DNA of 64,000 bases from an uncultured delta proteobacterium (GCA_963789265.1 CAWBKB010000007.1:320001-384000), one strand, 5' to 3'. Shown: positions 11,258-33,729, counted from the stretch's first letter. A program made the numbers and translations. Notes: generated by a model from the sequence alone, not told the origin.

Positions 11258-11268
11258 TTTATCTTTTT

Positions 11269-12224: not shown

Positions 12225-13319
12225 ATGACTGCGAAGGTGTACTACGACCTGCGTGAACAGTTAGATCAGTATTCCATGGGATTTCCTTCAACCGAGTCCG
12301 GGGTTGAAATAAGGATCCTGGAAAAGCTTTTCTCCGAAGAGCAAGCTGAGCTGTATCTCAATCTCACCCTTGTGCCTGAAACGGTCGAAGAGATAGCCCG
12401 GCGAATCGGCCGACCGTCAGGCGAGGTGGCCGCCCTGCTGGACCGCATGGTCGACAAAGGCCTCACATTTCGGGCCAAGGAAGGAGACACTGCCAGATTC
12501 CAAGCGGTGCCCTTTGTTATCGGTCTTATCGAATTTCAGATCAAAGACATGGACAAAGAATTGGCGGAACTATTCGAGCGATACCTCTTGGAGGCTTTCG
12601 GCAAGGAGGTGGTAGCTCAAACACTCCCGTTAAGAACCGTGCCGGTCAACAAGTCGGTTGACCGTTTGTGGCCGGTGGCGCCGTACGACGACGTGAAGAG
12701 AATTTTTCAGACCGAAGACAAGATCTCTGTAACAAACTGTATATGCAGAGTGCAGCAGGGTCTTTTGGGCAAGCGATGCGACAAACCGTTGGAAGTGTGC
12801 TTCATGTTTGGAAAATACGCTCAGTACTATGTTGACAAAGGCATGGGGCGTTTCGTCACTCAGAAGGAAGGTCTTCAAATAATTGACAAGTGCGACGAAT
12901 ATGGCCTCGTCCCCCAGCCGTTCATTGCTAAGGAAGCAGGTGTGCTCTGCAACTGCTGCGGAGACTGCTGTGGAGTTCTGCGTTGCCTAAAGATGCACCC
13001 CAAACCCGCAGAACGGGTCCTGACCAATTACTACGCGGCCGTTGACCCAGATGCCTGCTCCGCATGCGAGACCTGCACTGACCGCTGCCAAATGGAAGCC
13101 ATTAAAGTAGGAGTTGATGAAGTGGCCAAAGTGGATCGTGACAGATGCATCGGTTGTGGTTTGTGTGTCACCACTTGTCCTAGCGAAGCTGTTTCGCTGC
13201 GATTGAAGCCGGAATCCGAACGCCAAGAACCGCCCGAAACAGGAGAAGATTACATCTTAGAACTGGCCTTGGCACGAGGGAAATCCGTTATCCCTCTCGC
13301 TATATCAACAAAATCCTAG
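12225..13319 (+). CDS. 4Fe-4S ferredoxin-domain protein with N-terminal helical domain
   Basis: CICR, CNCCGDCC, CSACETCTDRC and CIGCGLCVTTCP motifs; AGGAGG RBS. Confidence 0.9.
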   Translation: MTAKVYYDLREQLDQYSMGFPSTESGVEIRILEKLFSEEQAELYLNLTLVPETVEEIARRIGRPSGEVAALLDRMVDKGLTFRAKEGDTARFQAVPFVIGLIEFQIKDMDKELAELFERYLLEAFGKEVVAQTLPLRTVPVNKSVDRLWPVAPYDDVKRIFQTEDKISVTNCICRVQQGLLGKRCDKPLEVCFMFGKYAQYYVDKGMGRFVTQKEGLQIIDKCDEYGLVPQPFIAKEAGVLCNCCGDCCGVLRCLKMHPKPAERVLTNYYAAVDPDACSACETCTDRCQMEAIKVGVDEVAKVDRDRCIGCGLCVTTCPSEAVSLRLKPESERQEPPETGEDYILELALARGKSVIPLAISTKS

Positions 13320-13685
13320 GGTCGATCCTAGTTCCCAATTACATGCCTAACAGGCACACCACGTTTTCAAGCGATGAAGGTGAACAGTGGTGAGGACATT
13401 GCCAGGATATCTAGGAGCGTCCCCGTAGTTGAACAGCTACGACATCTAGAGATGTCCTTTGGGGAGGATTCCTTATGTAGGCATTACAGACCGATCGGCC
13501 CAAGAATTTTCCACAAATGACCATATATCAGAAGATTAACCCGATCCGCACCGCGGGGTCCTATATAGGCTTTCAGGAAGTCCGATTTACGTCCAGGGGA
13601 GTCAAAATAATGCACTCCTCAAAGAAGCTTTTGCTGGGAAGGGACTTCAATTCGGTTACTGCTGCGGAAAAGGGGAGGCATCCTC

Positions 13686-14489
13686 ATGTCGGCTATAGAG
13701 TTGCCCCATAACTCTCCTCTCATGTTCGAGGAAATAGAACCAGGTCTCGGCTTGGTCACCATGAACCGGCCTGAGAGACTCAACGCGCTCAACATAGCGA
13801 TGGTGGAGAGCTTCGAAGCCCTTTCCAGAGACCTCGCCGGTAATGATGACATTCGAGTTCTCATACTCATCGGTTCAGGGCGGGGGTTTTGCGCGGGAGC
13901 GGACCTGGTTGAAGTGGCCGCTCGTTCAGGTGATGAGGAATTTGCATCAGGGGACAAGTTTCTGCGCTTGGTGCAGCAAAGGTTTTCCAATCTCGTCCTA
14001 GCTTTCCGGCAGATTCCTCAGCCGGTAATTGCGGCGGTGAACGGACCATCTGCCGGCGGCGGATTCGCACTGGCCCTGGCGTCTGACATCCGCATAGCCG
14101 CCCCCGAAGCATATTTTTTGGCGTCCTTCATCAATATCGGCCTTTCGGGCGGAGAGATGGGAACCTCATATCTTCTGCCCCGCCTCATAGGCTTGTCTCG
14201 CGCATCGGAGATCCTCTATTCGGGCAGGCGTGTCGGGGCTGCTGAAGCGGAACGAATCGGCTTGGTGACCAAGATTGTACCGCTTGAGGACCTCCGTGCC
14301 GAGGCCATAGCTGTGGCACGAACGATGATGGATAAGAGCCCCAGCGGGCTGATGCTCACCAAGCGGGTCTTGAATGACAACGCTGCCGCTTGTTCGCTTG
14401 CCGCGGCCATGGAACTGGAAAACCGGAACCAAACCATAATGGTGTTTTCCAACGAATTCTTTAAACGAGTGAACGCATTTGTGAAGTAA
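13686..14489 (+). CDS. Enoyl-CoA hydratase/isomerase family protein
   Basis: MNRPERLNAL, FCAGADL, PVIAAVNGPSAGGGFALALASDIR. Confidence 0.93.
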   Translation: MSAIELPHNSPLMFEEIEPGLGLVTMNRPERLNALNIAMVESFEALSRDLAGNDDIRVLILIGSGRGFCAGADLVEVAARSGDEEFASGDKFLRLVQQRFSNLVLAFRQIPQPVIAAVNGPSAGGGFALALASDIRIAAPEAYFLASFINIGLSGGEMGTSYLLPRLIGLSRASEILYSGRRVGAAEAERIGLVTKIVPLEDLRAEAIAVARTMMDKSPSGLMLTKRVLNDNAAACSLAAAMELENRNQTIMVFSNEFFKRVNAFVK

Positions 14490-14597
14490 GAAACGTTTCA
14501 CAACCCGATGCATCGGCAAATCCGGTCCTTTAGGAGCTTTGGCCGTAGAGCTTGAACGTGGGTCCGCGAAAAACCTAAACAGTAGGAGGAAATAGCG

Positions 14598-15425
14598 GTG
14601 GAAAAGATGCTGGATGGAAAGGTGGCCATCATCACGGGTTCAGGAAGGGGCATCGGGAGCGCTGCAGCGCTCATGTTCGCCAGGGAAGGGGCGAAGGTCG
14701 TTGTCAGCGACCTCGATGCAGAGCCTGCTGAACAGATCGCGGCTGACATCAAGAGTGCCGGAGGTGACGCGATCACTTTTGTCGGCGACGTAACCGACCC
14801 TGGTTTCGGCGACGGCATCGTCAGAGCAGCGGTTGACTCATGGGGCGGGCTCCACATCATAGTAAACAACGCGGGGTTCACCTGGGATGCGCTCATCCAC
14901 AAGATGGACGACGAGCAGTGGGACAAGATCATTGACCTCCACCTGAAAGCGCCGTTCCGACTTATTCGAGCCGCCAAACCGTACTTCTGCGATGCAGCTA
15001 AACAAGAAGCAGGGGAAGGCAAGAAAGTAGCACGCAAGATAATCAACGTGTCTTCCGTTGCCGGAGTCAGCGGCAACGCCGGCCAAGCGAACTATTCCTC
15101 GGCGAAGGCCGGCATCATGGGATTAACCAAGGCAATGAGCAAAGAATGGGCGCGATATAACGTCCAGGCCAATTGTGTGGCCTTCGGATTCATTGATACG
15201 CGTCTCACCCAGGAAAAGGAAAAGGGGATTTCTGTTGAGGCAGGCGGCCAACAGATTGCCGTCGGTGTGCCCAAGTCTCAGCGAGACATCTTCATCAAAA
15301 TGATCCCCATGGGTCGGCCGGGCACGCCTGATGAAGCAGCAGGAGCAATCATGTTCTTCGCCTCCCCAATGTCGGATTACGTTTCCGGGCAAGTGCTGGT
15401 GGTGGGTGGCGGCTTCTCGATGTAA
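14598..15425 (+). CDS. SDR family 3-oxoacyl-CoA/ACP reductase
   Basis: TGSGRGIG, NNAG and YSSAK motifs; GTG start with AGGAGG. Confidence 0.93.
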   Translation: MEKMLDGKVAIITGSGRGIGSAAALMFAREGAKVVVSDLDAEPAEQIAADIKSAGGDAITFVGDVTDPGFGDGIVRAAVDSWGGLHIIVNNAGFTWDALIHKMDDEQWDKIIDLHLKAPFRLIRAAKPYFCDAAKQEAGEGKKVARKIINVSSVAGVSGNAGQANYSSAKAGIMGLTKAMSKEWARYNVQANCVAFGFIDTRLTQEKEKGISVEAGGQQIAVGVPKSQRDIFIKMIPMGRPGTPDEAAGAIMFFASPMSDYVSGQVLVVGGGFSM

Positions 15426-15460
15426 TGGCACCACACGATGAGCCATGAAAGGAGTACGAA

Positions 15461-16298
15461 GTGGCGCTCGATCTTAATGTGATGGGCATAAAATCAGATC
15501 CCATCGCGTTCACCTACACCGAAGACGATGTGATCCTTTATGCCCTTGGCGTCGGATCTGGAGCCGAAGAACTCGACTTTGTTTACGAAAAGAATCTCAA
15601 GGTACTGCCAACTTTCGCGGTGATACCCTTGATGCCCATTATTTTCCAATTCGTAGAAGCGGCCAACGTTAATCTAAAAGGCTTATTGCACGGTGACCAC
15701 AAGATCGTGCTGCACAAGAAAATTCCCAGAAACGGAACTATGTATAGCAACTGGCAGTGGACGTCAGTGTATGACAAGGGTGACCGAGGTGCTTTGTTCT
15801 CGCTTCACTCTGAAACTAGAAACGAGAAGAGTGAACTAATCTTCGAAAACTTTCTCACCGGTTGGGACCGCACGGCGGGTAATTTCGGTGGAGAGCCAGG
15901 GCCCAAGAACGAAAAACGAGTGCCTCCCTCCGGAGTAAAATCGGATTTCCGAGTCGAATACCGGACTTCACCCAGTCAAGCGGCTCTCTACCGACTAAGC
16001 GGTGACAAGAACCCTCTGCATATCGATCCGGAGTTTGCCAGGAAGAGCGGTTCTGGAAGAACCGATCCTCATGGGATTGTGCACGTACGGCTTTGCCGGC
16101 CGGGCCGTATTGCACAGCGTGTGCGGAAGCGACCCGGCACGGTTCAGATCGTTATCTGCGCGGTTCACCGCTATGGTCCTGCCGGGAAACACCTTGATCA
16201 CCGAGGGATGGAAGGCGGAAGGCGGGACATACATCATTCAGTCCAAGACACAAGACGGACGCATCGTCCTAGACAACGCCACGGCCGAAGTAGCGTGA
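15461..16298 (+). CDS. MaoC-type (R)-specific enoyl-CoA hydratase (frameshift near 16050)
   Basis: YALGVG, LPTF and LYRLSGDKNPLHIDPEFA, then PILMGLCTYG in the next frame. Confidence 0.88.
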
Positions 16299-16313
16299 GG
16301 GAGGTGAGTTAGA

Positions 16314-17460
16314 GTGAACCGGGTAATCAACACGGAAGAACATCGCATTTTTCGCGATGCCATTAGGAAGTTCGTGAGAAAGGAGGTTGTTCCCCATCTG
16401 GACGAATGGGAAGAACAGGGGATTGTGCCTCGCGGAGCATGGAAACAAATGGGGGAACAGGGGTTTCTTATGTCCGTGGATGGACGAGGAGTACGGCGGG
16501 GCCGAGGCAGGATTCGAATATTCGATCATGGTGTACGAAGAGCTGATCAGGGCCGGCGCGATGGGCTTCATGGTCGCGCTCCATTCGGACATTGTCGTGC
16601 CGTACGTGTATTCCTTCGGCAGTGAAGAGCAGAAGCGGAAATGGCTCCCCGGCGTGGTGACGGGCGAAGCGCTCATGGCCATAGCTATGACCGAGCCCGA
16701 CACTGGGTCGGATCTGCAGGCCATCCGCACGAGAGCGGTCAAGGATGGAGATTCCTGGGTCATCAACGGGCAAAAGACGTTCATTTCCCTGGGAATTTCC
16801 TGCGACCTTGTGATCGTAGTCTGCAGAACCGATCCTCTGGCTCAGCCCCCGCATCGGGGCATCAGTCTCATCGTAGTCGAAGATGGCACGCCCGGTTTCG
16901 AGAAAGGCCGCAAACTCTCTAAGATGGGGCTCCGTATGTCCGACACGGCTGAGCTCTCGTTCAACGATTGCCGGGTCCCCGTGGACAATCTGCTGGGTGA
17001 GGAAAACCAAGGATTCCTTTACCTGATGCAAAAGCTCCAGCAGGAACGCTTGGTTTGCTCGTTCATGGGGCAGGTTGCGGCGGAATCGATGCTGGATATG
17101 ACCGCCAAGTATTGCAAAGAACGGGAGGCATTCGGTCAACGCATCGGAAGTCTTCAGCACAATACATTCAAACTGGCTGAAATGGCCACCGAAGTGGAAC
17201 TGGGTCGAACCTTTCTCGACGACCTTCTCGCCGACCATATTGAAGGCAAGGACATCGTCAAAAGGGTGTCTATGGCCAAATGGTGGTTGACCGAGATGGC
17301 AAACCGGGTGGCGTATCAGTGTGTCCAGCTCCACGGCGGTTATGGCTTTATGGAAGAATATCCCATTTGTCGCTGGTATCGCGACATTAGAGCCTCCTGC
17401 ATCTTCGCAGGCACTTCAGAAATCATGAAAACGATCATCGGCAAGATGATGGGGTTCTAG
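16314..17460 (+). CDS. Acyl-CoA dehydrogenase (frameshift near 16465)
   Basis: IAMTEPDTGSDL, NGQKTFIS, QERL and QLHGGYGFMEEYP motifs. Confidence 0.92.
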
Positions 17461-17483
17461 TCGGAAAATGCAGGCAACGAAGA

Positions 17484-17813
17484 ATGAACATGGAGCACGT
17501 CCATGAAATCAACCAGGAAGTCCGCTCCATCGCCGGGGGATATATTTGGGAGCGAGAGGGGATACTTGAGTTAGACGGGCGGGAAGCACTTTACGTGGTG
17601 GGCAACGCCTTTGTGGATTCTTCCTGTTGCGGAATCGGTGGATGTCGCTTCGCCTACGTTCCTGGTTACGTTCGAGGACTTCGCATCCGGAGAAATGAGC
17701 AGGGTTTGTGGGTGTCAGAAGTGGAGCCGATCCATGACGATCAAACTAGGGATCGAATTAGGCGCCTGCTGGAAGACAGGGAGATAATCCAACAAGTTCA
17801 GTTCGGAGAGTGA
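17484..17813 (+). CDS. Hypothetical protein with SSCCGxGGC motif
   Basis: Fills the operon gap; protein-like sequence. Confidence 0.75.
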   Translation: MNMEHVHEINQEVRSIAGGYIWEREGILELDGREALYVVGNAFVDSSCCGIGGCRFAYVPGYVRGLRIRRNEQGLWVSEVEPIHDDQTRDRIRRLLEDREIIQQVQFGE

Positions 17814-17867
17814 ATTGCCCCAGGCCAATCAAAAATGACTTGGGAAGCTATAAAAGGAGGAATGAAG

Positions 17868-19315
17868 ATGGCAGGGATCGTTTCGTACGGTTGCTACATA
17901 CCGCGATACCGAATCGATCGGAGATTAATTTACAAGGCTATGGGCTGGCTTAACCCAGCCACTTTTCTCCCTGGAGAAAAAGCCGTGGCCGATTTCGACG
18001 AGGACAGTTTGACAATGGCTGTGGCTGCGGCCACCGATTGTCTTGGAGATATTGATCGCAACAAAATAGACGCAGTCTATTTTGCCACCTCAACCGCTCC
18101 CTATACCGAGCGGCAGGGCGCTGAAATAATCGCGACTGCCATTGATGCCCGATCGGACATCAGAAGCGCCGACTTTAGCGACACCCCCAAGGCCGGAACT
18201 ACAGCTTTATTATCCGCCTTAGATGCAGTCCGGGCCGGTTTGCAGGTAAGGTCATGGTATGCGCGGGCGATACGCGGAACGCCAAAGCCGGGAGCGCACA
18301 GGAAGAGATCTTTGGAGATGCTGCGGCCGCAATTCTTGTGGGTGAGGACGACTCTATAGCCAAATTTGTAGACTTCTATTCCGTTTCTTATGATTTTCCC
18401 GACCACTGGCGCAGCTCCGGGGAGCTTTACGATCATCAATGGGAAGATCGCTTCATTCGGGATGAAGGGTACACCAGGTTCGTGGTGGAGGCATTGAACG
18501 GTTTGGCTAACAAATGCTCTCTACAAATTGGCCACCTATCCAAGGTGGTTTATCCGTGCCTGTACACAGGGGACTTCAAAAAAATCGCACTGAGACTCGG
18601 CCTGGACCCATCTCAGTTGGTTGAACCTTTGCTGGGCCAGATGGGATATGCCGGCACGGCCGACCCACTGCTGCATCTGGTCAAGGTGCTCGAAGAGGCC
18701 AAGGCCGGGGACAGGATTGCCGTGGTTGGCTACGGCACAGGAGCCGATGCCCTGCTCTTCGAGGTTACGGATCGCGAAAGAGAGATAAGAGGAGCACGCC
18801 GAGGATTGACCAAAAACATAAATGCCAAAAGGGAACTTTCCAGCTACGAAAAAATGATCACATGGCGCGGCTTGCTGCAGGTCGAAAAGGGTGCACGCGG
18901 GGAAACGACGCCTTTTACGGCTCTTTCTCACTACTGGCGTGACCGCCACCAGATCTTAGGGCTTCGCGGAACGTGTTGTCGATCCTGCGGGACTCCACAG
19001 TACCCGGCCCAGCGAGTTTGCGTCAATCCTGAGTGCGGGAAAATCGATCAAATGGATACGTATCGGTTCTCAGATAAGCGAGGAAAGCTCTTCACGTACA
19101 CAGGTGACAACCTGGCCTTTAGCCCTAACCCACCAGTCATCTGCGGCATCGTCGATTTTGATGGAGGTGGCCGTTTTTGGTTCGACATGGCTGACGCGGA
19201 TTTAGATCAAGTTGAAGTTGGTATGCCGGTGGAAATGAGTTTTCGGAAGAAATACTTCGACGACAAGTTCGGCATCCACGGATATTTCTGGAAAGCGATC
19301 CCTGTTTTGGATTGA
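17868..19315 (+). CDS. HMG-CoA-synthase-like domain fused to DUF35 Zn-ribbon/OB-fold (frameshift near 18245)
   Basis: GIVSYGCYIPRYR, DEDSLTMAV and GDAAAA; C-terminal CRSCG...CVNPEC and GKLFTYT...GMPVEMSFRK. Confidence 0.88.
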
Positions 19316-19362
19316 GTATGCAGGTCGAAGGAGCACCCTTCCCTTGCAAGGAGGATAAAGAC

Positions 19363-20559
19363 ATGGCTGATGGCATAAAGGATAAGGTGGCTATCATCGG
19401 GATGGGTTGTACCCGTTTCGGCGAACACTGGAATCTCGGTGAGGAAGATTTGATTGTCGACGCGTTTACAGAGGCTCTCGACGACGCAGGCATTGAGAAA
19501 AAAGACCTTCAGGCAGCCTGGTTCGGCTCCTGTTACAGCGAAATCAACGTCGGCAAGTCCGGGAATCCGCTGAGTGTGGCTTTGAAACTCCCTTTCATCC
19601 CGGTTACTCGAGTCGAAAATTTTTGCGCTACAGGATCGGAGGCCCTTCGGGGAGCCGTGTACGCTGTTGCCTCGGGAGCATACGACATCTGCCTGGCCGT
19701 AGGGGCGGAAAAGCTCAAAGATGCAGGCTTCGGTGGGCTTCCCGAGTTTTCCACGGCTTTGGGAACAAAATACCGGATGATCGGCCCGAGTGTCAGTGCA
19801 CCGGGAGCTTTCGCGATGATGGCCACACGCTATTTCGACAAGTACGGCTTGAGCCCTGGTGAGGGCAAGGAAATCCTCGCCACGATCTCGGCAAAAAGTC
19901 ACCACAACGGCGCCAAGAACCCGAAAGCTCACCTTCGACGTGAGGTGTCGGTCGACCAAATCCTCAAAAGCCCTATGATCGCCTGGCCTTTGGGCTTGTT
20001 TGACTGCTGCGGGGTCAGTGACGGTGCGGCCGTGGCCATCGTCTGCCGGGCGGACATGGCTAAGAGCTTCAGGAAAGACCCTATATACGTCAAGGCCATG
20101 CAGATGGCCCTGAGTTCAGGTGAGGAGATGATGTATACCGAGTGGGACGGCTCGTACGTCAAGACCGCTGTGAAATGTGCGGCCAGAGCCTATGATGAAG
20201 CCGGCATCAAGAACCCACGTAAAGAAATTAGCTTGATGGAGTTGCACGACTGCTTTTCCATCACCGAACTGGTCACGTACGAAGACCTGGGAATTTCTCC
20301 GCGTGGAAAGGCCGGCAATGATCTGCGAGACGGCTTTTTCAATCTGGACGGCAAGATTCCATGCCAGCCCGACGGAGGCCTGAAGTGCTTCGGTCATCCT
20401 ATCGGCGCTTCGGGACTGAGGATGATGTACGAAATGTACAAACAGCTTCAAGGCAAGGCCGGAGATCGCCAGATCAAAGACCCGAAGATCGGACTTACCC
20501 ACAACATGGGCGGATTTCCCGCCATGAACCTCGTCAGCATCAACATTGTCGGTCTCTGA
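19363..20559 (+). CDS. SCP2-type/DUF35-associated thiolase
   Basis: VENFCATGS, ELHDCFS, GHPIGASG and HNMGG motifs. Confidence 0.93.
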   Translation: MADGIKDKVAIIGMGCTRFGEHWNLGEEDLIVDAFTEALDDAGIEKKDLQAAWFGSCYSEINVGKSGNPLSVALKLPFIPVTRVENFCATGSEALRGAVYAVASGAYDICLAVGAEKLKDAGFGGLPEFSTALGTKYRMIGPSVSAPGAFAMMATRYFDKYGLSPGEGKEILATISAKSHHNGAKNPKAHLRREVSVDQILKSPMIAWPLGLFDCCGVSDGAAVAIVCRADMAKSFRKDPIYVKAMQMALSSGEEMMYTEWDGSYVKTAVKCAARAYDEAGIKNPRKEISLMELHDCFSITELVTYEDLGISPRGKAGNDLRDGFFNLDGKIPCQPDGGLKCFGHPIGASGLRMMYEMYKQLQGKAGDRQIKDPKIGLTHNMGGFPAMNLVSINIVGL

Positions 20560-20674
20560 TTCCGTTTCGGCACGGTCTCGAACCGGTTCTCCGATCCCAT
20601 GAGAGACGCATAGGAAGGATGGCATTGGGAGGTATCGGCCCTCAAACAAACAGATAGGACATAAGGGAGGCCCC

Positions 20675-22355: not shown

Positions 22356-22408
22356 CCTTCTTGACGGAGGGACTGAAGGATTCAGTATCTCTGGCACGAG
22401 ATAAGCGC

Positions 22409-23509: not shown

Positions 23510-23797
23510 TTATTCTCCCATCACGGTCGGGAAAACTGCCAACCAGTCTCCTTCTTGCAATTCAGTATCGAGGCGGTCCTTGAAGTGTCTGTAGTGACGC
23601 CCATTCAACAAGATCTGATAATAGGGTGTAAAGTCCTGGGTCCGGGAATCGAAAATCAATTCTCTCACTTGTTCATGTCGATTCGACAACTCGATCAAGG
23701 CCTCACGCATAGTGGATTTTTCCATGTCCAGCTCGATCTCACCAGTCCCGCCAATTGCTTCCCTTACCGACAAAAAACCTTTTATAGTAATTCTCAT
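23510..23797 (-). CDS. MoaD/ThiS-family beta-grasp protein ending ...VMGE
   Basis: ILLNGRHY..F...LDTELQEGD.LAVFP motif. Confidence 0.85.
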   Translation of the reverse strand: MRITIKGFLSVREAIGGTGEIELDMEKSTMREALIELSNRHEQVRELIFDSRTQDFTPYYQILLNGRHYRHFKDRLDTELQEGDWLAVFPTVMGE

Positions 23798-24056
23798 TGG
23801 CAAGACCCTATCGGTTTTTAACTCGCATCGCTTATATATGTGCGAACGCGGCAAATGAGTTGGCCCCCGGACCTGAATCAGGCGGCGTAATACCACACTG
23901 TGCTTGCATACGAGCAACATTGACAGGCCGGTTCGCCGTAGGTCTCGACCGATCTCCTCCACTACGAACAGCGCAGTTTGACCTCGTTTTCGAGGCGGAC
24001 TGCCGATCTCACGTGATGGCACTAATTGTGGTGAAACCTGTCATCGAGACCGTTCC

Positions 24057-25066: not shown

Positions 25067-25861
25067 TTATCGCTTTCGATCACGCTCTGCTCTTTCCCTG
25101 GCAAAAAGGGCTGCTCCGAGGGCCCCCACAATCTGCGGATCAACGCCGTTTTGCTCGAACACCGGGACCTTCAGAACTTCTTTCAGACTCTTGACGACAG
25201 CGGAATTCTTGGCTACGCCCCCTGTCATAGCCACCACTTCCCGTATGCCAACCTTCTTGGTTATCTTGCTTATTCTCTCCGCCATAGCCCGGTTTACTCC
25301 CGCGGCGATATCAGCCACATCTTTTCCATCATTGAGCATGCACATCACGTCGAACTGGGCTAGCACGCTACATGTCTTGGTAATTCCGATTGGAGACTCC
25401 GATTGGAACGACATCGGCCCCAATTCTTCAAGTTCAACGCCCAAAACCTTGGCCATACCCTCCAAGAACCTCCCCGTCCCCGCAGCACACTTGTCGTTCA
25501 TCGTGAAATCTACCATGTAACCAAGCTTGTCCAATCTGATTACCTTGCAGTCCTGACCGCCGATATCGATGACGGTTCGGACCTCCGGATTTATCCAGTG
25601 GGCGCCCCTGCCGTGACACGATATCTCTGATATGCTGCTGTTGGCGAACGGGATCTTTTCCCTGCCGTAGCCGGTGCTCACGCAATAATCGATACCGTCA
25701 AAGGAGAGACCGGCGGCGGCAAGAGTTTTGGTCATAACATCGTATGCCGTCTGCTCGGGCCTGGGCCTGACTCTCATGATTTCATAGGCCATGATCGAGT
25801 CATCTGCCATGATTACCGCTTCGCCCGAGAGTGAGCCTACGTCACAGCCTGCAACGATCAT
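25067..25861 (-). CDS. ATP-dependent acyl-CoA dehydratase/reductase activase (BcrA/BzdQ/HadI-like)
   Basis: DVGS, TGYGR, EISCH, DIGGQD, MNDKCAAGTGRFLE and TCSV. Confidence 0.92.
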   Translation of the reverse strand: MIVAGCDVGSLSGEAVIMADDSIMAYEIMRVRPRPEQTAYDVMTKTLAAAGLSFDGIDYCVSTGYGREKIPFANSSISEISCHGRGAHWINPEVRTVIDIGGQDCKVIRLDKLGYMVDFTMNDKCAAGTGRFLEGMAKVLGVELEELGPMSFQSESPIGITKTCSVLAQFDVMCMLNDGKDVADIAAGVNRAMAERISKITKKVGIREVVAMTGGVAKNSAVVKSLKEVLKVPVFEQNGVDPQIVGALGAALFARERAERDRKR

Positions 25862-26089
25862 CGATCTTCCTCTCTTCTAAGAATCGTGGCTCATAGCCGT
25901 TGATCGGAGAGACTACCCGTGCGCCTTACAAAGCGCACCGAAGTTTCTTTGAGACAAATGTGCGACGACGCCAACTGGGCAGGTCTTGCATCGTAGGCAC
26001 TACCCGCTCTGATTTCCCTTTTCCGTTGAACTCCGCGACTTGCTTTGCCTGATAGCGACACATGCTCGGTGGCCGAGGGAATATTGGGG

Positions 26090-26854
26090 TCACGAGGCGC
26101 TGAGTGCCGCACCGATGGCGCATACTAACTGGGAGTCCACCGGAATGCGTGTTGCCTCGACTCCTAGGTTTTGTTCCAAGGTGCTTACAACACACTCGTT
26201 CTTGGCAACTCCACCGGTCACAACAACTTCTCTTCGAATGCCGAGTCTCTTGACCATGGTGGCGACACTAAGGGCTAAGGAATGACTAATGCCGGCAGCG
26301 ATGTCCGCAGCTTCTACCCCCTCATTCACGTGGGTCACTATCTCGCTCTCCCGAAAAACTGCGCATTGGGAACTTATATGAACTTTGCCCTTGGCTGACA
26401 GAGATATAGGCCCAAGATCTTCCACACGTAACTCTAGAGCCTGTGCAGCCAGTTCCAGAAAAAATCCCGTACCCGCCGCACACCTGTCACTTGCGCGATA
26501 TTCCAGTACCTTGCCCTTTTCGTTGACCCCAATGGCGATACTACTCAACCCGCCAATGTCCACCAGAGTCCTGGCAGACGGCAACATCCAGTGGGTTCCT
26601 TTGGCAAGACAATTGATTACGCTTTCCTTGCTGTGAGAAAAGGGCAAATACTTTTCTCCCCAACCAGTGCCGCCGCAATATGCGATTCCGTCCAGGCCGA
26701 CGCCCGCTTTTGACAGTACAGTGGTTACCGAGTCTTCTATTGCTTGGGTCAGCTTGCCCCGGTTAGGGGTAATGTCGTACGCTAATATAGAGCGGTCGTT
26801 CAAGATAACGGTCTTGGTAACGATGGCACCGATATCGCAACCCAGCCTTATCAT
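26090..26854 (-). CDS. Second, divergent activase subunit (BcrD/BzdP-like)
   Basis: DIGA, TGWG, DIGGLS, DRCAAGTGFFLE and QCAVF. Confidence 0.85.
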   Translation of the reverse strand: MIRLGCDIGAIVTKTVILNDRSILAYDITPNRGKLTQAIEDSVTTVLSKAGVGLDGIAYCGGTGWGEKYLPFSHSKESVINCLAKGTHWMLPSARTLVDIGGLSSIAIGVNEKGKVLEYRASDRCAAGTGFFLELAAQALELRVEDLGPISLSAKGKVHISSQCAVFRESEIVTHVNEGVEAADIAAGISHSLALSVATMVKRLGIRREVVVTGGVAKNECVVSTLEQNLGVEATRIPVDSQLVCAIGAALSAS

Positions 26855-26930
26855 ATCAATCCTCCTCACCGGATGTCCGTACCCGCGTTGTTTCCGGTGA
26901 AACCCTACATGCCGGATGGCCATGAATTCT

Positions 26931-28325
26931 CTAGAGTGTTGTAAGAAACTCCTCCAGGACCCGTCTAAGCTCAGCAGGAGGCGTGAATCTCTTGTCGAGC
27001 ATATCCATTTCGAACCTTAGAGTGGGAACCCCGGTCTCCTCTTTGACTTTGTCGCTCAACAGCTTGTTGAGTGCCCAAAAGTGCTTACACGCCATGTGGC
27101 CGCCTATGACCAGAGCGTCTGCTCGAAATTCCTTGACTATTCGAACGAAATCATCGACCCACACGTCCGAAAAGCCCATCGACTGCCGTCCCATGGGCAT
27201 CTGCATTACCCTCCAGGCAAGGCCTTCAATCATGGTTTCCGTACTGGTCGTATCAACAAAGCCCACTTCAGGATGCATATAGGTGAGTGTGTCCGCTATA
27301 TAAGTGGCACCGTGCTCCTGCTCCAACCATTCAAAGAATGTCAGATCGTACGCCTCCCACGTGTATCCCCACACGAGCCTCTTTTCCTTCATGCCTTTTG
27401 GGATTACTCCTTCGCCTCTGTCTGCCCTTGCCTTTACGTCTTCGTACAGAGTTCTGAAATAGTTGAGTCCCATGGGAGTTCCCAACTGGGTCATGAAGAT
27501 GGTCTCCGCCGGGCGATGCCAGCCCGTGTCAGGGCACGGAACTAATTTTTTCAACTCCTGGGTTTTGAGGATGTAGTCTACGGCCTCGTTGCCGATCTTG
27601 CAGTAAGCCCGCAGCTTGTCCTCGTCGAGAGTCCTTCCAGTGATTTTTTCCAATTGTTCGACAAGCCTCTTCATTTCGCCTACGGTAAACTTGAGACCCC
27701 GTTCATTACGATAATATGGGGTTTCAATGGTTACGAGAGGAACATCGAATTTATGGGCAGTCCACTCGTACAGCCTATTACTGGAGTCACAAGGTGTCGC
27801 GGATTTCACAAGAACATCCGGTTTTGGCATCATTCCCATCAAGAGGTATCCTGCCGGACCCTTTTGCGCGGAACAGAGGTGGTCGGGATAGCCCTCGGCC
27901 TCGATTCTGTCGATGCCCGGTTCGGCGCCGTCTTTGTAGAGAGGCGCTGAGAGGCCGGCCGATATCTCGTAGCATACGGGTATCAGATCCATGGCCAAAA
28001 TAATCTCAACGCTGATAGGAAAATAATAGTAAATGGCCGGTTTTCCTGCGTCCAACCCTTCGTTGCAAAAGTCCACGAAGTCCACCACACAGTCGAGCAA
28101 AGCGCCCGCGACTTTCTTGTTCTTTTCTTTGAGGATAGTATCGATCAGGGCTGGCTGTACCATGTCAAAGTTGCTCTGAAGGTTTGCAGGCAGGATTTCC
28201 CGAACCGTTTCTATCCCGCCCCAGTCGTCCAAGCATGTAAGGCCTTCCTGCTTCAACACGAACTTGGCCAGGTCTCCGGTAAGCTTTAACCTGTCAAAAA
28301 TGGCCCTATCTTTTCTGTTATTCAT
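26931..28325 (-). CDS. 2-hydroxyacyl-CoA dehydratase / class I benzoyl-CoA reductase subunit (HgdA/BcrB-like)
   Basis: HLCS, TPCD and HMACKH Cys motifs; GVPTLRFEMDMLD. Confidence 0.85.
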   Translation of the reverse strand: MNNRKDRAIFDRLKLTGDLAKFVLKQEGLTCLDDWGGIETVREILPANLQSNFDMVQPALIDTILKEKNKKVAGALLDCVVDFVDFCNEGLDAGKPAIYYYFPISVEIILAMDLIPVCYEISAGLSAPLYKDGAEPGIDRIEAEGYPDHLCSAQKGPAGYLLMGMMPKPDVLVKSATPCDSSNRLYEWTAHKFDVPLVTIETPYYRNERGLKFTVGEMKRLVEQLEKITGRTLDEDKLRAYCKIGNEAVDYILKTQELKKLVPCPDTGWHRPAETIFMTQLGTPMGLNYFRTLYEDVKARADRGEGVIPKGMKEKRLVWGYTWEAYDLTFFEWLEQEHGATYIADTLTYMHPEVGFVDTTSTETMIEGLAWRVMQMPMGRQSMGFSDVWVDDFVRIVKEFRADALVIGGHMACKHFWALNKLLSDKVKEETGVPTLRFEMDMLDKRFTPPAELRRVLEEFLTTL

Positions 28326-28330
28326 TTCTC

Positions 28331-29455
28331 CTACCTCCTCGCGATCCTCTCCATGAATGCTTCCACCCGCGTCTTCAACCTTCCTATGTCGGACAGCATG
28401 TATTCTCTTTCCAGGATCAAAACAGGTATGCCTTTGGCTTCGAGTTCGTCGGCAAGCATGGGGCTTTCAACCGCATGGTTGTCGCAGAAGACAATTTTCT
28501 GGAGAATAACGCCGTCCACATTGGCTCCCCTAGCCAAATCTTCAGTGGACTTCAGCCGGTTCTTAAATTGGTTCATCATTCGGGGACACGGGTTGCCATA
28601 GTAGTAGCGCTTGGCGATGGCGTCCAACGGGGCTCCGTTTTCCTCCACCATGTCAAGGAAATGTCGTGAGCCAAAACAGAGAGAATCGGTAACAACCACT
28701 CCCCCCAGCCCTTCTATCACTTCCAGCAACTGCGGATCATCCAGGGCAGAGCCTCCCACCATCAACCTGGCCCTGTAGTTTGAGATGCCGTCTCTATTGT
28801 TGATCTCGCCCAGAGCCTCGGCCAACAGACCATTGTATTTCTCCCGCGGCATAATGCAGCCCGAGAGCAGGATTCTCATTGCGTCCGCACCGGTGATGGG
28901 GACAGCCTCGGCTTTTCTCAGCTCATAAAGCTGTTCGATCAAGCTCCTGCTCTCGTTGTAGATCTTCACGGATTCTTTCAGATCCCCATTGGAAATCTTT
29001 GCCCCAAAGTCTTTCGATAGTTTTTTGGTGAAATTGGAGATCTCTTCTTTGTACCACTCAAAGCCCGCATCGTAGACGGAATGAGGCACCGCAACCATGT
29101 ACATGTGTTCCGTCTTGCCGTGCTTTTCCCAGATTTCATAAAGGCGCCGGATCTGCTCGCAACCATTCAACAGGCAGAATCCATCCAGGAAGTCATACTC
29201 CCCTGACAGACCGGCCTGCAGAACGCAACGAGAGAAGGTGCAGTTGAAGCGATGCAGGTAGATGTCGGCCAGGTCAGTTTCAGTGGTCCCTCTCGCCTCC
29301 ACCCGGTACGGAAGAATACCCGCGGCGTGGATAATTTCTTCCGGCACGTACCGACATGCGTACCCCACAACGTGGCCTCCGGCTTGCTTCCAGTGGTTGA
29401 TGTGCGGATTCTCCATGCGATTAGGCAGCGCTAATAGTTCATTCAGGGCGCTCAT
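28331..29455 (-). CDS. 2-hydroxyacyl-CoA dehydratase / class I benzoyl-CoA reductase subunit (HgdB/BcrC-like)
   Basis: YVPEEIIHAAG, FNCT, GCE, PCP, FCDNH and TRVEAFME. Confidence 0.9.
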   Translation of the reverse strand: MSALNELLALPNRMENPHINHWKQAGGHVVGYACRYVPEEIIHAAGILPYRVEARGTTETDLADIYLHRFNCTFSRCVLQAGLSGEYDFLDGFCLLNGCEQIRRLYEIWEKHGKTEHMYMVAVPHSVYDAGFEWYKEEISNFTKKLSKDFGAKISNGDLKESVKIYNESRSLIEQLYELRKAEAVPITGADAMRILLSGCIMPREKYNGLLAEALGEINNRDGISNYRARLMVGGSALDDPQLLEVIEGLGGVVVTDSLCFGSRHFLDMVEENGAPLDAIAKRYYYGNPCPRMMNQFKNRLKSTEDLARGANVDGVILQKIVFCDNHAVESPMLADELEAKGIPVLILEREYMLSDIGRLKTRVEAFMERIARR

Positions 29456-29533
29456 GCTTGCCTCCTTGAGTCATTTGTTATGCCTTGCTTGTCAACCAGT
29501 CATTCGGTTTTCATGTTTGGCTCTCCTCGACTC

Positions 29534-29775
29534 TCATCTTTTTTTGAAAAGCTTTTGGGTGACGGTGAGCAGCAGACTCTCCCTAAATTCCAGTAACTGG
29601 GGAATCGCGTACGGAGGAAGCTTCTCCCTGCAATGCGTCACGATTTCGTCAGCACCGACATTGCCTCTAGAAGACACTTTGAGAACAACGAACACTTTTA
29701 CTTTTTCGCTGCCTGGAAGCTCCGGATCATGAACTCCTATCGTCACCGCGCGGCTGCTGGGGAATGCTCGAAAAG
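29534..29775 (-). pseudogene. Degraded C-terminal fragment of an acyl-CoA ligase
   Basis: IGVHDP..PGSEKVKVFVV...CREKLPPYAIP..LEFRESL; no N-terminal part present. Confidence 0.8.
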
Positions 29776-29881
29776 AACCTCGTTTTGTCTGGCTGAACAG
29801 CCTTATCGCCGTGGACGTTGCTCGTGTCCTTGTTTCGATTCACGAGATAGAAATACCGTCATCATCCAGGCGGCGGAGCCT

Positions 29882-31364
29882 TCATTTAAGGATCTGGTAC
29901 CAGGGTTTGACAGCTTGGCCTGTCAGATCCAGATAGATATGTTTAGTAACTGTGTATTCTTCCAAAACCATTGTGGACAGATCCTTGCCCCATCCGGACT
30001 CCTTGCAACCTCCCCACGGCGTCTCGCAGAATAATATGAGATGCTCGTTTACCCACACTGTGCCGGCTTTGATCTGGGAAGCTGCCACGAGCCCCTGCGG
30101 AATATTCTTGGTCCATACCGAAGCGCACAAGCCATAGGGCGTGTCATTGGTAAGTGCAACCGCTTCTTCCAAAGAACTGATCTTCACTAATCCAACTACA
30201 GGACCAAATATTTCCGATCTCATGAATTCCATGTCATTGGTACAGTTGCCGAAAACAGTGGGCGTAACGAAATATCCATTCCGAGTCTCCGGTGTATTCG
30301 GACGCTCTCCTCCGCAAAGCAGTTTTGCCCCACTTTTCTTTGCAGATTCCACGAAGGACTCGATTTTGTCCCTGTGGGCCCGGGTACGCGACCGGCCCCA
30401 AAACTGTAGCGGGGTCCATCGGATCGCCATAAGGTAGAGTCGAAGCGGCTTTCGCTAGTTTTTCTGCAAATTCGTCATAGATAGATTCGTGGATATAGAA
30501 CCGGCTTGCCGCAGCACATACTTGACCGCTGTTGAAGAAGGCTCCGAAAACAGCCCCCTCCACTGCAGAATCAACATCTGCATCCGGCAGAACCACAAAG
30601 GAATTCTTTCCACCCAGCTCAAGTCCCACCTGTTTGACGCTGTCACTTGCGATGCGCATTATGCGCTTGCCGGTCGCCGTATCGCCTGTGAAACCTATCT
30701 TGGCCACTTTCGGGTGTCGTACGAGAGCTTCTCCGACTATGTCTCCGGCGCCGGTAAGGACGTTTACCGTGCCCGCGGGCGCTCCAGCTTCTACAAAGAT
30801 CTCTGCAAGCTTGAGAGTGGTCAAGGGTGCAACGGACGGAGGCTTTACGATGCACGTGTTGCCGGTAACGAGGGCGGCTCCCAGTTTCCAAACCACCATC
30901 AGAGCAGGGAAGTTCCACGGAGTTATCAAACCGACCACTCCGTGCGGCTCACGCACAGTCATCGATAGACACCATGGACCGACAGGCAAAGTCTCGCCGG
31001 TCAATGACCGTGCAATACCTGCGAAATACTCCAATTGTTCAGCGCACATGGGCACATCGAAATTCATCGTTTTACGTATAGGGGACCCCTGCTCTGCAGT
31101 TTCGAGCATTGCAAGGGCCTCCTGCTGTTCCATGATCAGTTTGGAAGCTTTGTAAAGTATCTTAGAGCGATCCGTCATCGTGCGGGCTGCCCAGCCCGGC
31201 GCTGCTGCCTCTGCAGCCTGGACGGCAGCGTCCACATCGGCAACTCCACATTTGGGGACCGTACCAACCACCTCTCCATTCGCGGGGTTGGTGACTTCGA
31301 AAGTTTCACCGCTTGCGGAGGATACCCATTGACCTCCGATGAGAACCTTGTAATCCTCTGCCAT
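29882..31364 (-). CDS. NAD(P)-dependent aldehyde dehydrogenase (frameshift near 30380)
   Basis: ITPWNFP, FTGD, LELGGK, NSGQVC, EIFGPV and PWGGCKESG. Confidence 0.92.
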
Positions 31365-31408
31365 TTTGCTCTCCTTTATCGGCGCTGGAGCAACATCTTG
31401 GCGCTAAC

Positions 31409-31814
31409 TCATCTTCCAGACGAGCCTTCCAAGTTCTGCCCTTGAGAGCGCCGACCAATGAGGGTTTTTGACATCTTCAGCAGCTTCCAGAGATTTCCTC
31501 CAGCCCTAATCTTTCCTCTGATAAGGGCCATAATCGGCCCCACCTGGCCGCTGCTAAGCTCCGAGAGTTCTTCGAACCCGGCTTCCAAGTACGCGGATGG
31601 CTTGTTTATGGCCTCGTTTTGTATCTGTATATCACCTTTATTAAAAAACAAGCTGACCGCTATTCCGGTCCCGGCTTCCCTAACCACAAGAGTCCCATTT
31701 AAATTTGCAGTGCTTGCCCGTACCTGGTGATCACTGAGGGTTCTGGTCCATTACTTGTTTGATCACTACACCCAGGCCATTAAGTTCATTGCCGATTACC
31801 TGCACTTCTGTCAT
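31409..31814 (-). CDS. SCP2 sterol/lipid-binding domain protein (frameshift near 31738)
   Basis: MTEVQVIGNELNGLG... joins ...PIMALIRGKIRAGGN. Confidence 0.75.
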
Positions 31815-31995
31815 GCCTCGCTCCATTCGGACCCTTTGGCAGGTCAGGGGAAGGACGCCACAAAGTTGAGCGCTGGACGAGCCAGGAGGGCGAGGGGCCA
31901 GATGGCTGAGGCCCACCGTAAGAGCCGACCGTCTCGGCTCTGAAGCTCGTGTATCGTTGGCGCTGGAAAGATTCCCTGCCAATTGAAAAAACCGC

Positions 31996-32421
31996 CTATT
32001 CACCAAGATAGGCGGCTTCAAAGAGGGTAAATGAATTAGCCACCGCTCGAACGAATTTGGCGTTGCGCATAATCTTAGACATGTCACCCTTGACCTTGAA
32101 AAGACCCCGGACGACACCTTCAATAAAATCCTTGTCCCCTTTTATGACCTCTTTGAAGTCCGGATAGGCTCCTGTCACGTAGAAACCCGGATCTAATCCC
32201 GAAGGATCCTCAACCATTCGGGATGCCGAGCATGTCCCGGCCTTCGATTCCATATAGAGATAAGTCGTTTCGTCCAGTCCTCCGCCTGGAGTAATCTCAA
32301 AGACAAAGTTTCCGTTAAAGTCTGCTCCCCAGTTTTTCCCATTCTCTTGAACCGCTTGGCTGTTGTTCATTGCGATCTTCCAAGCCTCACACCATTCTTG
32401 CGACGGATACAAAACTGCCAT
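31996..32421 (-). CDS. SCP2 sterol/lipid-binding domain protein
   Basis: YPSQEW N-terminus; G..D.IEG...G..KVKGDM..IMR C-terminus. Confidence 0.88.
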   Translation of the reverse strand: MAVLYPSQEWCEAWKIAMNNSQAVQENGKNWGADFNGNFVFEITPGGGLDETTYLYMESKAGTCSASRMVEDPSGLDPGFYVTGAYPDFKEVIKGDKDFIEGVVRGLFKVKGDMSKIMRNAKFVRAVANSFTLFEAAYLGE

Positions 32422-32468
32422 GAGTCGTCTCCTTTCTATTTATTTGCCGTAGCGCCCTGAATGAGCAG

Positions 32469-33729
32469 CTACAAAGTTTTCAGATCGTACCAGTATCTGG
32501 CGTTCTCCAGGGTCTTCAACCCTTTTCCGCCCATCCAGAGCCCCACAACCTTCTGGTCTCGCCAATGCTTTTCAATGCCAAACTCCCTGGCATAACCATA
32601 GGAGCCCATAAAATCCATGGCCCGGCTGCACGCACGCTCGACTGCGTTATTGGCATGCAGAGCAAGGCCTCTAGACTTGAGGACGAATCGATCATCCCAC
32701 GGGTCCCATCCATAAATATCCGGGCGATCCATTTCCCTGGCGTATTGCCACATCCAGGCGGAAGTTGATTCTATGAGTATGGCTATCTCCGACAGCATGT
32801 CCGCACAAATGCTGTGCTCCTTCAGCGGTTTCCCCGCGATAATTCTTTCCGTGGTCCACTTCTTGATGATTTCATAGACGTTCTTCATGATGCCAACGGC
32901 CATGGCGGCTGATCCTACGTTTCCCATGGAGATTGCCCGTTTCCAGGTACTTAAGATCATCACCCGGGCCATGCAGCCTGTATCTTTTTGGAACTCTCAC
33001 GTGATCAAACCAGATGTCGGTGTTCATGTCTGCTGACATGCCGCATTTCTGGTATGGGTTACCTACCGAAACCCCTTGGGTTTTCGCGGGAACCATGATC
33101 AGGGCAAAATCATTCGGGTCCGTAGACCCTTTCTTGGTCGTGCAGACTACTGTGTACAGATCTGCGACTTTCCCCGAATTTGTTGGCCATATTTTGTGGC
33201 CATTGACGACCCAGTGATCGCCATCAGGCGTCGCGGTCGTTTGTATTGTCTTGCCACGCATCCGGCCGATATTCTCAACATCTGATCCGCTGGAGGGCTC
33301 TGTCATGGCATGACAACCCATGTACAGTTCGTCACCGCAAAACTTTGGTCCAAACTCCATGCAAAGCTCCATATTGCGGTGCGGTTTAAGGAGCGCCGGG
33401 ACAAATCCCCAGATGGAGCAAATGCAGGCAGTGGCAAAACCAGAGTCAATTCTGGCCAACTCCTCTACGATGACGCAGCACATAGTCATTGGCTCGGGAA
33501 TGTCCGATCCTCCGGCCTCAGCGGGGAAAAATGCCCCGTTGAGCCCGAGGTCCACGAGGACTTCCTTTAGAAGGGGTTTAACGATCTTGTGTTCTTTCCA
33601 ATCCTCGTCCACCTGCCCCCTGATGGGCATATATCGCTCTTCTCCCCACTTCCTGAGAGCTTTGCCCATGTCTGACACAAAATCTGAAACCCACTCCTTC
33701 GGACGAATAAAATCGTCTATCGTAGGCAT
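32469..33729 (-). CDS. Acyl-CoA dehydrogenase (frameshift near 32945)
   Basis: EELARIDSG, AMTEPSSGSD, NGHKIWPTN and MGSYGYARE..IEKHWRD. Confidence 0.9.

Follow-up and report, generated by a model that had tools for sequence, protein, structure and literature searches.

Do genes that share one genomic island, and that could be read as the steps of one pathway, also belong together? The question is raised by a gene cluster at 12225..33729 of a 64,000-nt stretch of DNA from an uncultured delta proteobacterium (GCA_963789265.1 CAWBKB010000007.1:320001-384000), the whole of which is called the window below. A reading made from the sequence alone (the sequence-only reading) had taken the cluster for an island-borne anaerobic pathway for a hydrophobic coenzyme A (CoA) substrate, with a full set of enzymes that matches no characterised pathway. 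In this study, that interpretation is partly supported. Judged by gene order and co-occurrence, we consider the cluster to be a recent island mosaic and not one co-inherited pathway. By the same comparisons, the only conserved unit appears to be the minus-strand module, which encodes a four-gene ATP-dependent radical enzyme, and the aldehyde dehydrogenase (ALDH) within it would be a recent local substitute for an aldehyde oxidoreductase (AOR) and a CoA ligase. What is new is a conserved reductase module within the benzoyl-CoA reductase/2-hydroxyacyl-CoA dehydratase (BCR/HAD) kind, and not the full set.

Conservation of the putative reductase module

Genes were called from an open reading frame (ORF) listing together with Pfam and the curated cut-offs of NCBIfam (Table 1). 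Every gene class named by the sequence-only reading was found, and its two convergent gene sets were confirmed, separated by a gap of 105 nt. Of its thiolase and DUF35 genes, the thiolase is present, but DUF35 is not a free-standing gene; it forms the C-terminal part of an HMG-CoA-synthase (HMGS)-like protein. An ORF at 23486-23821(+) was rejected as a gene because it is an antisense shadow of the ThiS gene.

For comparison, we used 43 module loci besides the window, 23 from a scan of one genome per species and 20 from a metagenome scan. Certain loci are duplicates (L014 is G013, and L016 is G026), and the locus counts are therefore not independent. Upstream partners were counted in the 24 loci with at least 7 kb of upstream flank and a catalytic O-like subunit at least 55% identical, and downstream partners in the 32 loci with at least 2.7 kb of downstream flank. 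G000 denotes the genome of the window, and C1 and C7 are contigs of it. Public contigs from runs X1, X3 and X7 were compared with window positions 15000-34500; X1 contains 0.74 of the sampled words from this interval and, because it may be the source sample, does not provide independent support.

The usual layout of the module is acyl-CoA dehydrogenase 2 (ACAD2), two sterol carrier protein 2 genes (SCP2b and SCP2a), tungsten AOR, ligase, the enzyme core (N, O, A and D), a CooC-type ATPase and ThiS. All of these genes are intact in L044, the closest relative, whose O subunit is 89% identical. Among the 24 loci with adequate upstream flank, a classical tungsten AOR occurs in 21, the cognate FadD-like ligase in 21, ACAD2 in 20, SCP2b in 22 and SCP2a in 20. 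A CooC-type ATPase follows the core in 32/32 loci with enough downstream flank, and two ATPase genes are found in all 32 of these (30 by script, L020 and L025 from coordinates). Seven loci have the two-component regulator pair together with the module, and 15 have a TrmB/ferredoxin-like gene. None of the 24 flanked loci has an ALDH, a short-chain dehydrogenase/reductase (SDR), a MaoC, an NMO/FabK-like or an HMGS/DUF35 gene beside the reductase; a thiolase occurs in one (L052), and a ligase of the window type also in one. The full gene set is not kept together elsewhere, and by the co-occurrence standard that the sequence-only reading had itself proposed, it does not stand as one system.

Three loci (L028, L052 and L059) are without both AOR and ligase. 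What L028 and L052 have in common is a GntR regulator, a GMC oxidoreductase and a LolA-like DUF1329 protein, to which L052 adds DUF1302; in L059, the core is followed downstream by an ACAD2-like gene, and GntR, GMC, DUF1329 and DUF1302 genes are absent. In L028, a second four-gene BCR-like set (two HGD-D and two BcrAD genes, 16635-21097) lies directly downstream of the core, after the GMC oxidoreductase and the DUF1329 lipoprotein. For the hydrophobic substrate of the sequence-only reading, the gene content offers hints, namely two or three SCP2 genes, the FadD-like ligases, and the LolA-like DUF1329/DUF1302 proteins of the variant loci. Naming a substrate from homologs was tried and rejected as too weak: the nearest solved relatives of both ligases are feruloyl-CoA or fatty-acyl-CoA synthetases, and those of ACAD2 are short-chain acyl-CoA dehydrogenases. 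A role of the AOR-family gene as a BamB-like dearomatising reductase was also rejected (1AOR, E 2e-163, vs BamB, 1e-62), and by these matches we assign it to the classical AORs.

The module is sparsely distributed. Of 40 relatives, only two have an ortholog of the O-like subunit (68% and 62% identity), and none of six same-genus genomes has one. The 23 genome loci, all from metagenome-assembled genomes (MAGs), belong to Syntrophaceae, Desulfomonilia, Desulfarculales, other Thermodesulfobacteriota, two Actinomycetota and one archaeon, and every one of the 43 loci comes from uncultured anaerobes. The O-like protein family numbers approximately 105 sequence clusters, whose identity to the window protein is 39-89%, and the next sequences lie across a gap, at 28%. 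Its members come from uncultured anaerobes only, Asgard archaea included, in soil, peat, digesters and the subsurface; their source names are generic ("2-hydroxyacyl-CoA dehydratase"), and all organism-bearing names are those of MAGs.

A separable beta-oxidation block

The distance from ThiS to the TrmB/ferredoxin gene is 1.2 kb in L044 and 10.2 kb in the window, where the plus-strand block lies between them. Contigs from X3 cover 15000-20549 at approximately 96% identity, diverge exactly after the thiolase and give essentially no cover over 20859-29322. Moreover, a 6.6-kb contig of the same-genus genome G005 carries SDR, MaoC, acyl-CoA dehydrogenase (ACAD), the 109-aa ORF, HMGS/DUF35 and thiolase, 48-83% identical and in an unchanged order. 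The block thus occurs without the module in close relatives, and by this synteny we regard it as an independent unit. Homologs of the HMGS/DUF35 protein at 36-48% identity are found in 36 of 41 genomes. Paralogs of it (G000 C7:298413-299459 and in same-genus genomes) lie in open frames of approximately 917-930 aa that look like housekeeping genes, and the length of the frames suggests a further fusion, perhaps with a thiolase, conserved genus-wide.

Two plus-strand genes lie outside this block in their relationships. With the module ligases, the ligase at 20703-22355 shares no more than 30-44% identity, and it probably stands in for the truncated module ligase. The TrmB/ferredoxin gene, judged by its copy beside the module in L044, would belong with the reductase module and is a candidate electron donor or redox regulator. 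Two paralogs elsewhere in G000 are 70% and 65% identical to it, and neither adjoins other BCR-like genes in that genome.

The radical enzyme and its CooC-type ATPase

The sequence-only reading had placed a four-gene ATP-dependent radical enzyme at the centre of CoA-ester chemistry, and the subunits bear this out. The N-like subunit matches BzdN (8S02_B) at E 3e-52, compared with 2e-37 for HadC and 1e-32 for DCCP. BzdN binds an [8Fe-9S] cluster on six Cys, according to the available text of its structural description (PMC11971306, Fuchs et al. 2025). In the N-like subunit, C34, C72, C99, C260, C290 and C324 are invariant in 20 orthologs and align with BzdN C36, C73, C100, C263, C293 and C327; these six residues are the putative ligands of an [8Fe-9S] double cubane. 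Arg53, Arg267 and His330 are also matched in BzdN.

The O-like subunit is considerably more divergent. In BzdO, the same available text describes a [4Fe-4S] cluster on Cys95, Cys128 and Cys380 with a water ligand, and the residues Glu65, His131 and Tyr97 (PMC11971306). In a 20-sequence profile, O-like C151, C179 and C413 align with BzdO C95, C128/129 and C380, the second being offset by one column. These three Cys and K414 are invariant in 46 family members, and E120, H149, D180, S182, H410 and H415 are at least 90% conserved. E120 aligns with MbdO Glu67, the column of which probably corresponds to BzdO Glu65. C118, C264 and H270 were considered as a sign of a larger cluster and rejected, being conserved in the close clade but in less than 90% of the 46 members. 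A phmmer search with the O-like subunit returned DCCP, HadB and MbdO at E 5e-8 to 2e-6 only, and no BzdO at E <=0.01; its AlphaFold model has a pLDDT of 86.7. The N-like and ATPase subunits also miss the NCBIfam equivalogs (BzdN 181.4 vs 453.8, BzdQ 203.5 vs 380.2, HadC 162.8 vs 700), and against the DCCP family NF040772 (cut-off 350 bits) the N-like and O-like subunits score 206.4 and 54.7. We read the core, from its aligned residues, as one that would work like a Bzd-type reductase yet belongs to no named equivalog.

A deviant Walker A motif, GKGGxGKT, together with a CxC metal-binding motif is the hallmark of CooC-type metallochaperones. In the ATPase that follows the core, G33-T41 (the deviant Walker A) and C130/C132 are invariant in 17 orthologs, and the best solved relative is CooC (3KJE, E 9e-14). 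A Cys/His-rich N-terminal tail, as in nickel metallochaperones, is present in five of the 17 (L015, L016, L017, L027 and L031) and absent from the window copy. No genes for carbon monoxide dehydrogenase/acetyl-CoA synthase (CODH/ACS) were found in the window or the loci scanned. Complex prediction of the O-like subunit with this ATPase gave a score of 0.00, which speaks neither for nor against an interaction.

Replacement of AOR and ligase by a resident ALDH

In a blastn comparison of L044 with the window, the matching blocks stop at 31458, at the end of SCP2a, and resume at 29874, with 368 nt of the L044 ligase gene still to run. The AOR and approximately three quarters of the ligase are gone here, and a 1580-bp ALDH segment, 99.81% identical to a copy on C1, stands in their place. 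The C1 ORF is intact (493 aa); in X3 and X7, the flank of the ALDH is of the C1 type, which identifies the C1 copy as the resident one. In X1, depth is approximately doubled over the ALDH and contigs show both flanks at 29876. A module-type AOR is absent from G000, where the best match is 37% identical. The aldehyde-to-acid step would thus have been kept by a different enzyme, NAD(P)-ALDH in place of AOR, which argues for an oxidative, catabolic direction.

The resident ALDH operon (G000 C1:2574000-2591715, which is also L064) contains an Fe-alcohol dehydrogenase, a radical SAM/SPASM protein, an electron transfer flavoprotein alpha subunit and a Liv-type ABC transporter. It also encodes two 650-690-aa proteins that join an old yellow enzyme (OYE) part to a flavin reductase and resemble enoate reductases or aryl-CoA reductases.

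Proposed mechanism and alternatives

On balance, we think it probable that the island carries cargo assembled from separable units, in which the module converts a hydrophobic aldehyde to an acid and then to a CoA ester that a divergent BzdNO-like enzyme reduces at the expense of ATP. Unit 1, the catabolic module, would consist of the minus-strand genes, the TrmB/ferredoxin gene and the two-component regulator. In the usual module, the tungsten AOR would oxidise the aldehyde and reduce ferredoxin, and the FadD-like ligase would form the CoA ester of the acid. The four-subunit Bzd-type class I-like enzyme, with a six-Cys double-cubane site in the N-like subunit, a three-Cys [4Fe-4S] site in the O-like subunit and two different BcrAD-type ATPases, would then spend ATP and drive low-potential electrons into this ester. 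The electrons may pass from AOR through the ferredoxin-domain protein to the reductase, a loop that would explain the absence of a 2-oxoacid:ferredoxin oxidoreductase. ACAD2 may act on the ring or chain product, or on a precursor; the SCP2 proteins may carry the greasy ligand, and the CooC-type ATPase may mature a metal site. In the window, AOR and most of the ligase have recently been lost to a deletion, and a copy of the host NAD(P)-ALDH gene has taken their place. Unit 2, the independent beta-oxidation block (enoyl-CoA hydratase, SDR, MaoC, ACAD, HMGS-like/DUF35 and thiolase), may take the products in this genome, and unit 3, the plus-strand ligase with the FabK-like reductase, probably supplies the missing ligase.

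Several results weigh against this reading. The module is combined with units 2 and 3 only in the window. In the O-like subunit, Ser182 occupies the column of BzdO His131 and Ala/Thr that of Tyr97 (MbdO itself has Phe in the former). This subunit falls under every curated cut-off (BzdO 27.5 vs 448.6, BcrB 63.6 vs 486.6, HadB 62 vs 750), and in Foldseek the dehydratase HadB ranks first (TMq 0.70-0.71), on a par with BzdO (0.68-0.69) and MbdO (0.70); DCCP follows slightly lower (0.65-0.67). In X1, contig cover across the island-type left ALDH junction amounts to only 30 nt, one below the bridging criterion; X1 may itself be the source sample and so is not independent. The copy also shows signs of decay: the truncated ligase, the lost AOR, a ThiS ending in Gly-Glu and a frameshift in SCP2a that is also present in X1.

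These points must be set against the alternatives. We consider it quite unlikely that approximately 22 genes were selected together as one dedicated pathway for a single aryl-alkyl, alicyclic, branched or steroid-like acid. All of the genes do lie in one island between att repeats, and the plus-strand ligase can replace the truncated one, a 61%-identical ligase being found by the variant core in L051/L052; furthermore, an SDR, an MFE-2-type hydratase, an SCPx thiolase and SCP2 mirror peroxisomal branched-chain beta-oxidation. Nevertheless, the absence of the block from L044 and of its genes from the 24 flanked loci, the break in X3 cover and the self-contained synteny in G005 all separate these genes from the core. 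We also consider it unlikely that the core acts as a 2-hydroxyacyl-CoA dehydratase on long or bulky 2-hydroxy acids, with the ACAD then reducing or oxidising the enoyl-CoA as in clostridial had operons. HadB as the top structural neighbour, the source annotations and the lack of conservation of the BzdO residues His131 and Tyr97 fit a dehydratase, and had operons typically have an ACAD nearby. Dehydratases, however, have one homodimeric activator, and their operons contain a single activator gene, a 2-hydroxyacid dehydrogenase and a CoA-transferase. The two different ATPase genes in 32/32 loci follow the BCR pattern, the N-like subunit is closer to BzdN than to HadC and has the six Cys of an [8Fe-9S] site, and neither a 2-hydroxyacid dehydrogenase nor a CoA-transferase was found in the window, L011, L013 or L044. 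Reduction, and not dehydration, would therefore be the better description of the core.

It is likewise doubtful that the module here is merely decaying, non-working cargo. The lost AOR, the truncated ligase and the Gly-Glu end of ThiS would be expected of such cargo, and in SCP2a the frameshift at 31741 is common to X1 and the C-terminus was replaced at the junction. Against this, no break affects the five core genes or the regulator pair, X1 contigs do not show four further apparent frameshifts, rpoB is likewise split, and an ALDH inserted on the same strand within the operon looks like a functional substitution. Least probable by far is a reductive, biosynthetic direction, in which an acyl-CoA or acid would be turned into an aldehyde via AOR for an unusual lipid. 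The SCP2 proteins do suggest lipids, but NAD(P)-ALDH, which works essentially in the oxidising direction only, took the slot of AOR here, and a ligase that makes CoA esters from free acids accompanies the core in 21/24 loci. AORs, for their part, are described as reversible in the available text of PMC13328260, which would allow this direction.

A more far-reaching proposal is put forward here as speculative and unlikely: the N/O/A/D core and its obligatory CooC-type ATPase would form a new class of ATP-driven radical enzyme, in which the metal site of the divergent O subunit needs a dedicated metallochaperone. The enzyme would reduce a non-benzoyl, lipid-like CoA ester with electrons from the aldehyde of the same molecule, via AOR and the ferredoxin-domain protein, as a self-contained redox loop, and the module would spread between Thermodesulfobacteriota, Actinomycetota, Chloroflexi and Asgard archaea, in the window by way of an integrative island.

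Relation to known systems

We know of no bzd, bcr or mbd cluster with the CooC-type ATPase, SCP2, AOR and FadD-like ligase that the module carries. The Azoarcus-type class I BCRs BzdNOPQ and MbdONPQ (PDB 8S02, 9G87) have the same order of kinds as the module (N-like, O-like, two ATPases), and they share with it the six matching Cys of the N-like subunit and the three Cys of the O-like one; E120 of the latter aligns with MbdO Glu67, the putative counterpart of BzdO Glu65. They differ from it in the very divergent O-like subunit, in which His131 and Tyr97 are not kept. HadBC with its activator HadI ((R)-2-hydroxyisocaproyl-CoA dehydratase, PDB 3O3M) resembles the module in fold family and in a nearby ACAD; in contrast, the module has two distinct ATPase subunits and an N-like subunit with six Cys, and it scores far under the cut-off. 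DCCP/DCCP-R (PDB 6ENO, 7YYL) is the best phmmer match of the O-like subunit (E 5e-8) and shares an [8Fe-9S]-type Cys set. However, DCCP is a homodimeric single-gene enzyme, whereas the module encodes a heterodimer and a heterodimeric ATPase among CoA-ester genes. CooC, the nickel-insertion ATPase of CODH (PDB 3KJE), has the same deviant Walker A and CxC, but the module's ATPase is tied to a BCR/HAD-family enzyme.

The thn operon of anaerobic naphthalene degradation comes close in gene content, with a class-I-type four-subunit reductase, crotonases, MaoC hydratases, ACADs, thiolase, ferredoxin and regulator in the available text of PMC12016498. The table of that operon, compared by gene content only, is without SCP2, AOR/ALDH, ligase, CooC, ThiS, HMGS/DUF35 and FabK-like genes (PMC12016498), and beta-oxidation genes of the window type are not conserved with the module reductase. 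As far as this source goes, there is no one-to-one match, and no published combination was found, in agreement with the sequence-only reading that the cluster maps onto no described pathway. A literature search, which reached few subscription journals, returned no described cluster joining AOR, SCP2, BCR and ACAD, none for sterol carrier protein with BCR, and none linking CooC with BCR or HAD. The available text of the WOR classification paper (PMC13328260) does not mention the gene context of the module.

The ATP-dependent enzymes of the BCR/HAD family catalyse reductions that are among the hardest in biology, and few substrate classes are known for them. Fixed partners such as the CooC-type ATPase and the lipid-binding proteins point to chemistry or cofactor maturation that has not yet been described. 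In addition, the AOR-to-ALDH swap is a natural experiment on pathway direction that indicates an oxidative one, and the window is direct evidence of an integrative island as a vehicle of the module. As this case indicates, island genes that look like a striking full set may form a recent mosaic and not a pathway.

The island and its borders

The sequence-only reading was right to call the cluster island-borne. It lies in a tRNA-integrated genomic island of 27 kb, for which the tRNA-Asn, a tyrosine integrase, direct repeats and empty sites are all present. The integrase gene ends 12 nt from the tRNA-Asn. In the same-genus genomes G001, G004 and G006, the tRNA and the conserved right flank (38.7-40.9 kb) lie within approximately 0.5-2 kb of sequence like 11163-11313 or 6940-7091, and the 27-kb insert is absent. 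Synteny with same-genus genomes is scattered left of 11163 and is therefore uninformative beyond the att sites. GC content gives no island signal; a sigma-54 promoter scan yielded 29 matches vs 30.3 expected, i.e., no enrichment, and a scan for sigma-70 promoters and terminators was barely above shuffled sequences.

Table 1. Features of the cluster and of the island that carries it (window positions).
Feature	Position	Strand	Remarks
attL, 65-nt direct repeat of tRNA-Asn 3′ part + 22 nt	11247..11311	.	63/65 identical; left flank 11163-11313 adjoins tRNA-Asn right flank in G001
TrmB-type helix-turn-helix + 2x[4Fe-4S] ferredoxin-domain protein	12225..13319	+	78% identical copy beside module in L044
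Crotonase-type enoyl-CoA hydratase	13686..14489	+	PF00378 E 2e-50
SDR, likely 3-hydroxyacyl-CoA dehydrogenase	14598..15425	+	80% identical ortholog in G005
MFE-2/MaoC R-hydratase	15461..16312	+	C-terminal part out of frame via assembly indel at 16051
ACAD1, closest to AcrC/butyryl-CoA dehydrogenase types	16314..17460	+	Apparent frameshift 16464 is assembly indel
109-aa Cys-containing ORF, no family	17484..17813	+	48% conserved in G005 block
HMGS-like protein fused to DUF35 (zinc ribbon + OB fold)	17835..19315	+	Split near 18240 in assembly
SCPx-type thiolase, block end common to X3 and G005	19312..20559	+	PRK06157 646 bits vs cut-off 403
AMP-forming FadD-like acyl-CoA ligase	20703..22355	+	61% identical to ligase by variant core in L051/L052
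NMO/FabK-like FMN enoyl reductase	22352..23404	+	Pfam, NCBIfam
ThiS/MoaD-like protein	23510..23800	-	Ends Gly-Glu here; Gly-Gly in L011 and L044
CooC-type P-loop ATPase, CbiA/CooC type, 275 aa	24057..24884	-	GKGGxGKTT, invariant CxC
BcrD/BzdQ-like ATPase subunit	25067..25861	-	
Second, different BcrA/BzdQ-like ATPase subunit	26090..26923	-	
O-like catalytic subunit, 464 aa, divergent HGD-D family	26931..28325	-	Invariant C151, C179, C413
N-like subunit, 374 aa, HGD-D family	28331..29455	-	Six invariant Cys align with six BzdN Cys
3′ remnant (~120 codons, 368 nt) of module's own CoA ligase	29507..29874	-	Translates to ligase C-terminus
Inserted copy of resident NAD(P)-ALDH gene (ORF 31364-29882)	29876..31455	-	1577/1580 identical to G000 C1:2584416-2585994; X1 contigs do not have its extra T at 30385
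SCP2a	31409..31829	-	Frameshift near 31741; C-terminus replaced at ALDH junction
SCP2b	31996..32421	-	
ACAD2 (419 aa in orthologs)	32469..33729	-	Split at 32946 by assembly indel
LuxR/NarL-type response regulator	34526..35182	+	With module in 7 other loci (at least 50% identity)
PAS sensor histidine kinase, paired with LuxR/NarL-type regulator	35184..37208	-	
Tyrosine integrase	37569..38483	+	PF00589 E 2e-20
attR 38473-38537 overlapping tRNA-Asn 38495-38570	38473..38570	-	

In L044, the regulator pair adjoins the TrmB/ferredoxin gene, and in the window the two stand at opposite island ends, beside attR and attL. Both gene orders can be read from a single circle, which is what excision of the island in circular form would produce. 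Near 6940-7091, the tRNA-Asn 3′ region recurs a third time as a weaker att-like copy (33 nt at 91% + 14 nt), and in G004 the tRNA adjoins sequence like 6940-7064. This arrangement suggests a second islet of approximately 4 kb (7090-11246, with GGDEF, DUF4405, methyltransferase and MarR genes) in tandem with the 27-kb island.

Split genes and minor observations

Six cluster genes appear split or shifted, namely MaoC, ACAD1, HMGS/DUF35, ALDH, SCP2a and ACAD2. Contigs from X1 are one base shorter at 16051, 16464, 30382 and 32946, which repairs MaoC/ACAD1, ALDH and ACAD2. At 18240, where X1 gives no cover, the relative X3 has an extra C that repairs HMGS/DUF35. At 31741 in SCP2a, X1 agrees with the window and only the relative X7 is without the base; this break may be real. 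The essential rpoB gene of the G000 assembly lies in three frames (rpoC in one), and because it is split too, most of the breaks are taken to be assembly indels. Outside the cluster, an ABC_tran_2/hydrolase gene at 40298-42509 is split into two overlapping ORFs, most likely by another assembly indel.

A gene of the choloylglycine-hydrolase family (linear amide C-N hydrolase) lies at 1132-2259, approximately 10 kb left of the island, and no link to it was seen. Short repeat families at 47571-47817 (approximately 240 nt) and 53926-54151 (approximately 200 nt) each have at least 15 copies across the G000 contigs at 86-99% identity, and they look like miniature inverted-repeat transposable elements (MITE) or repetitive extragenic palindrome (REP)-type elements.

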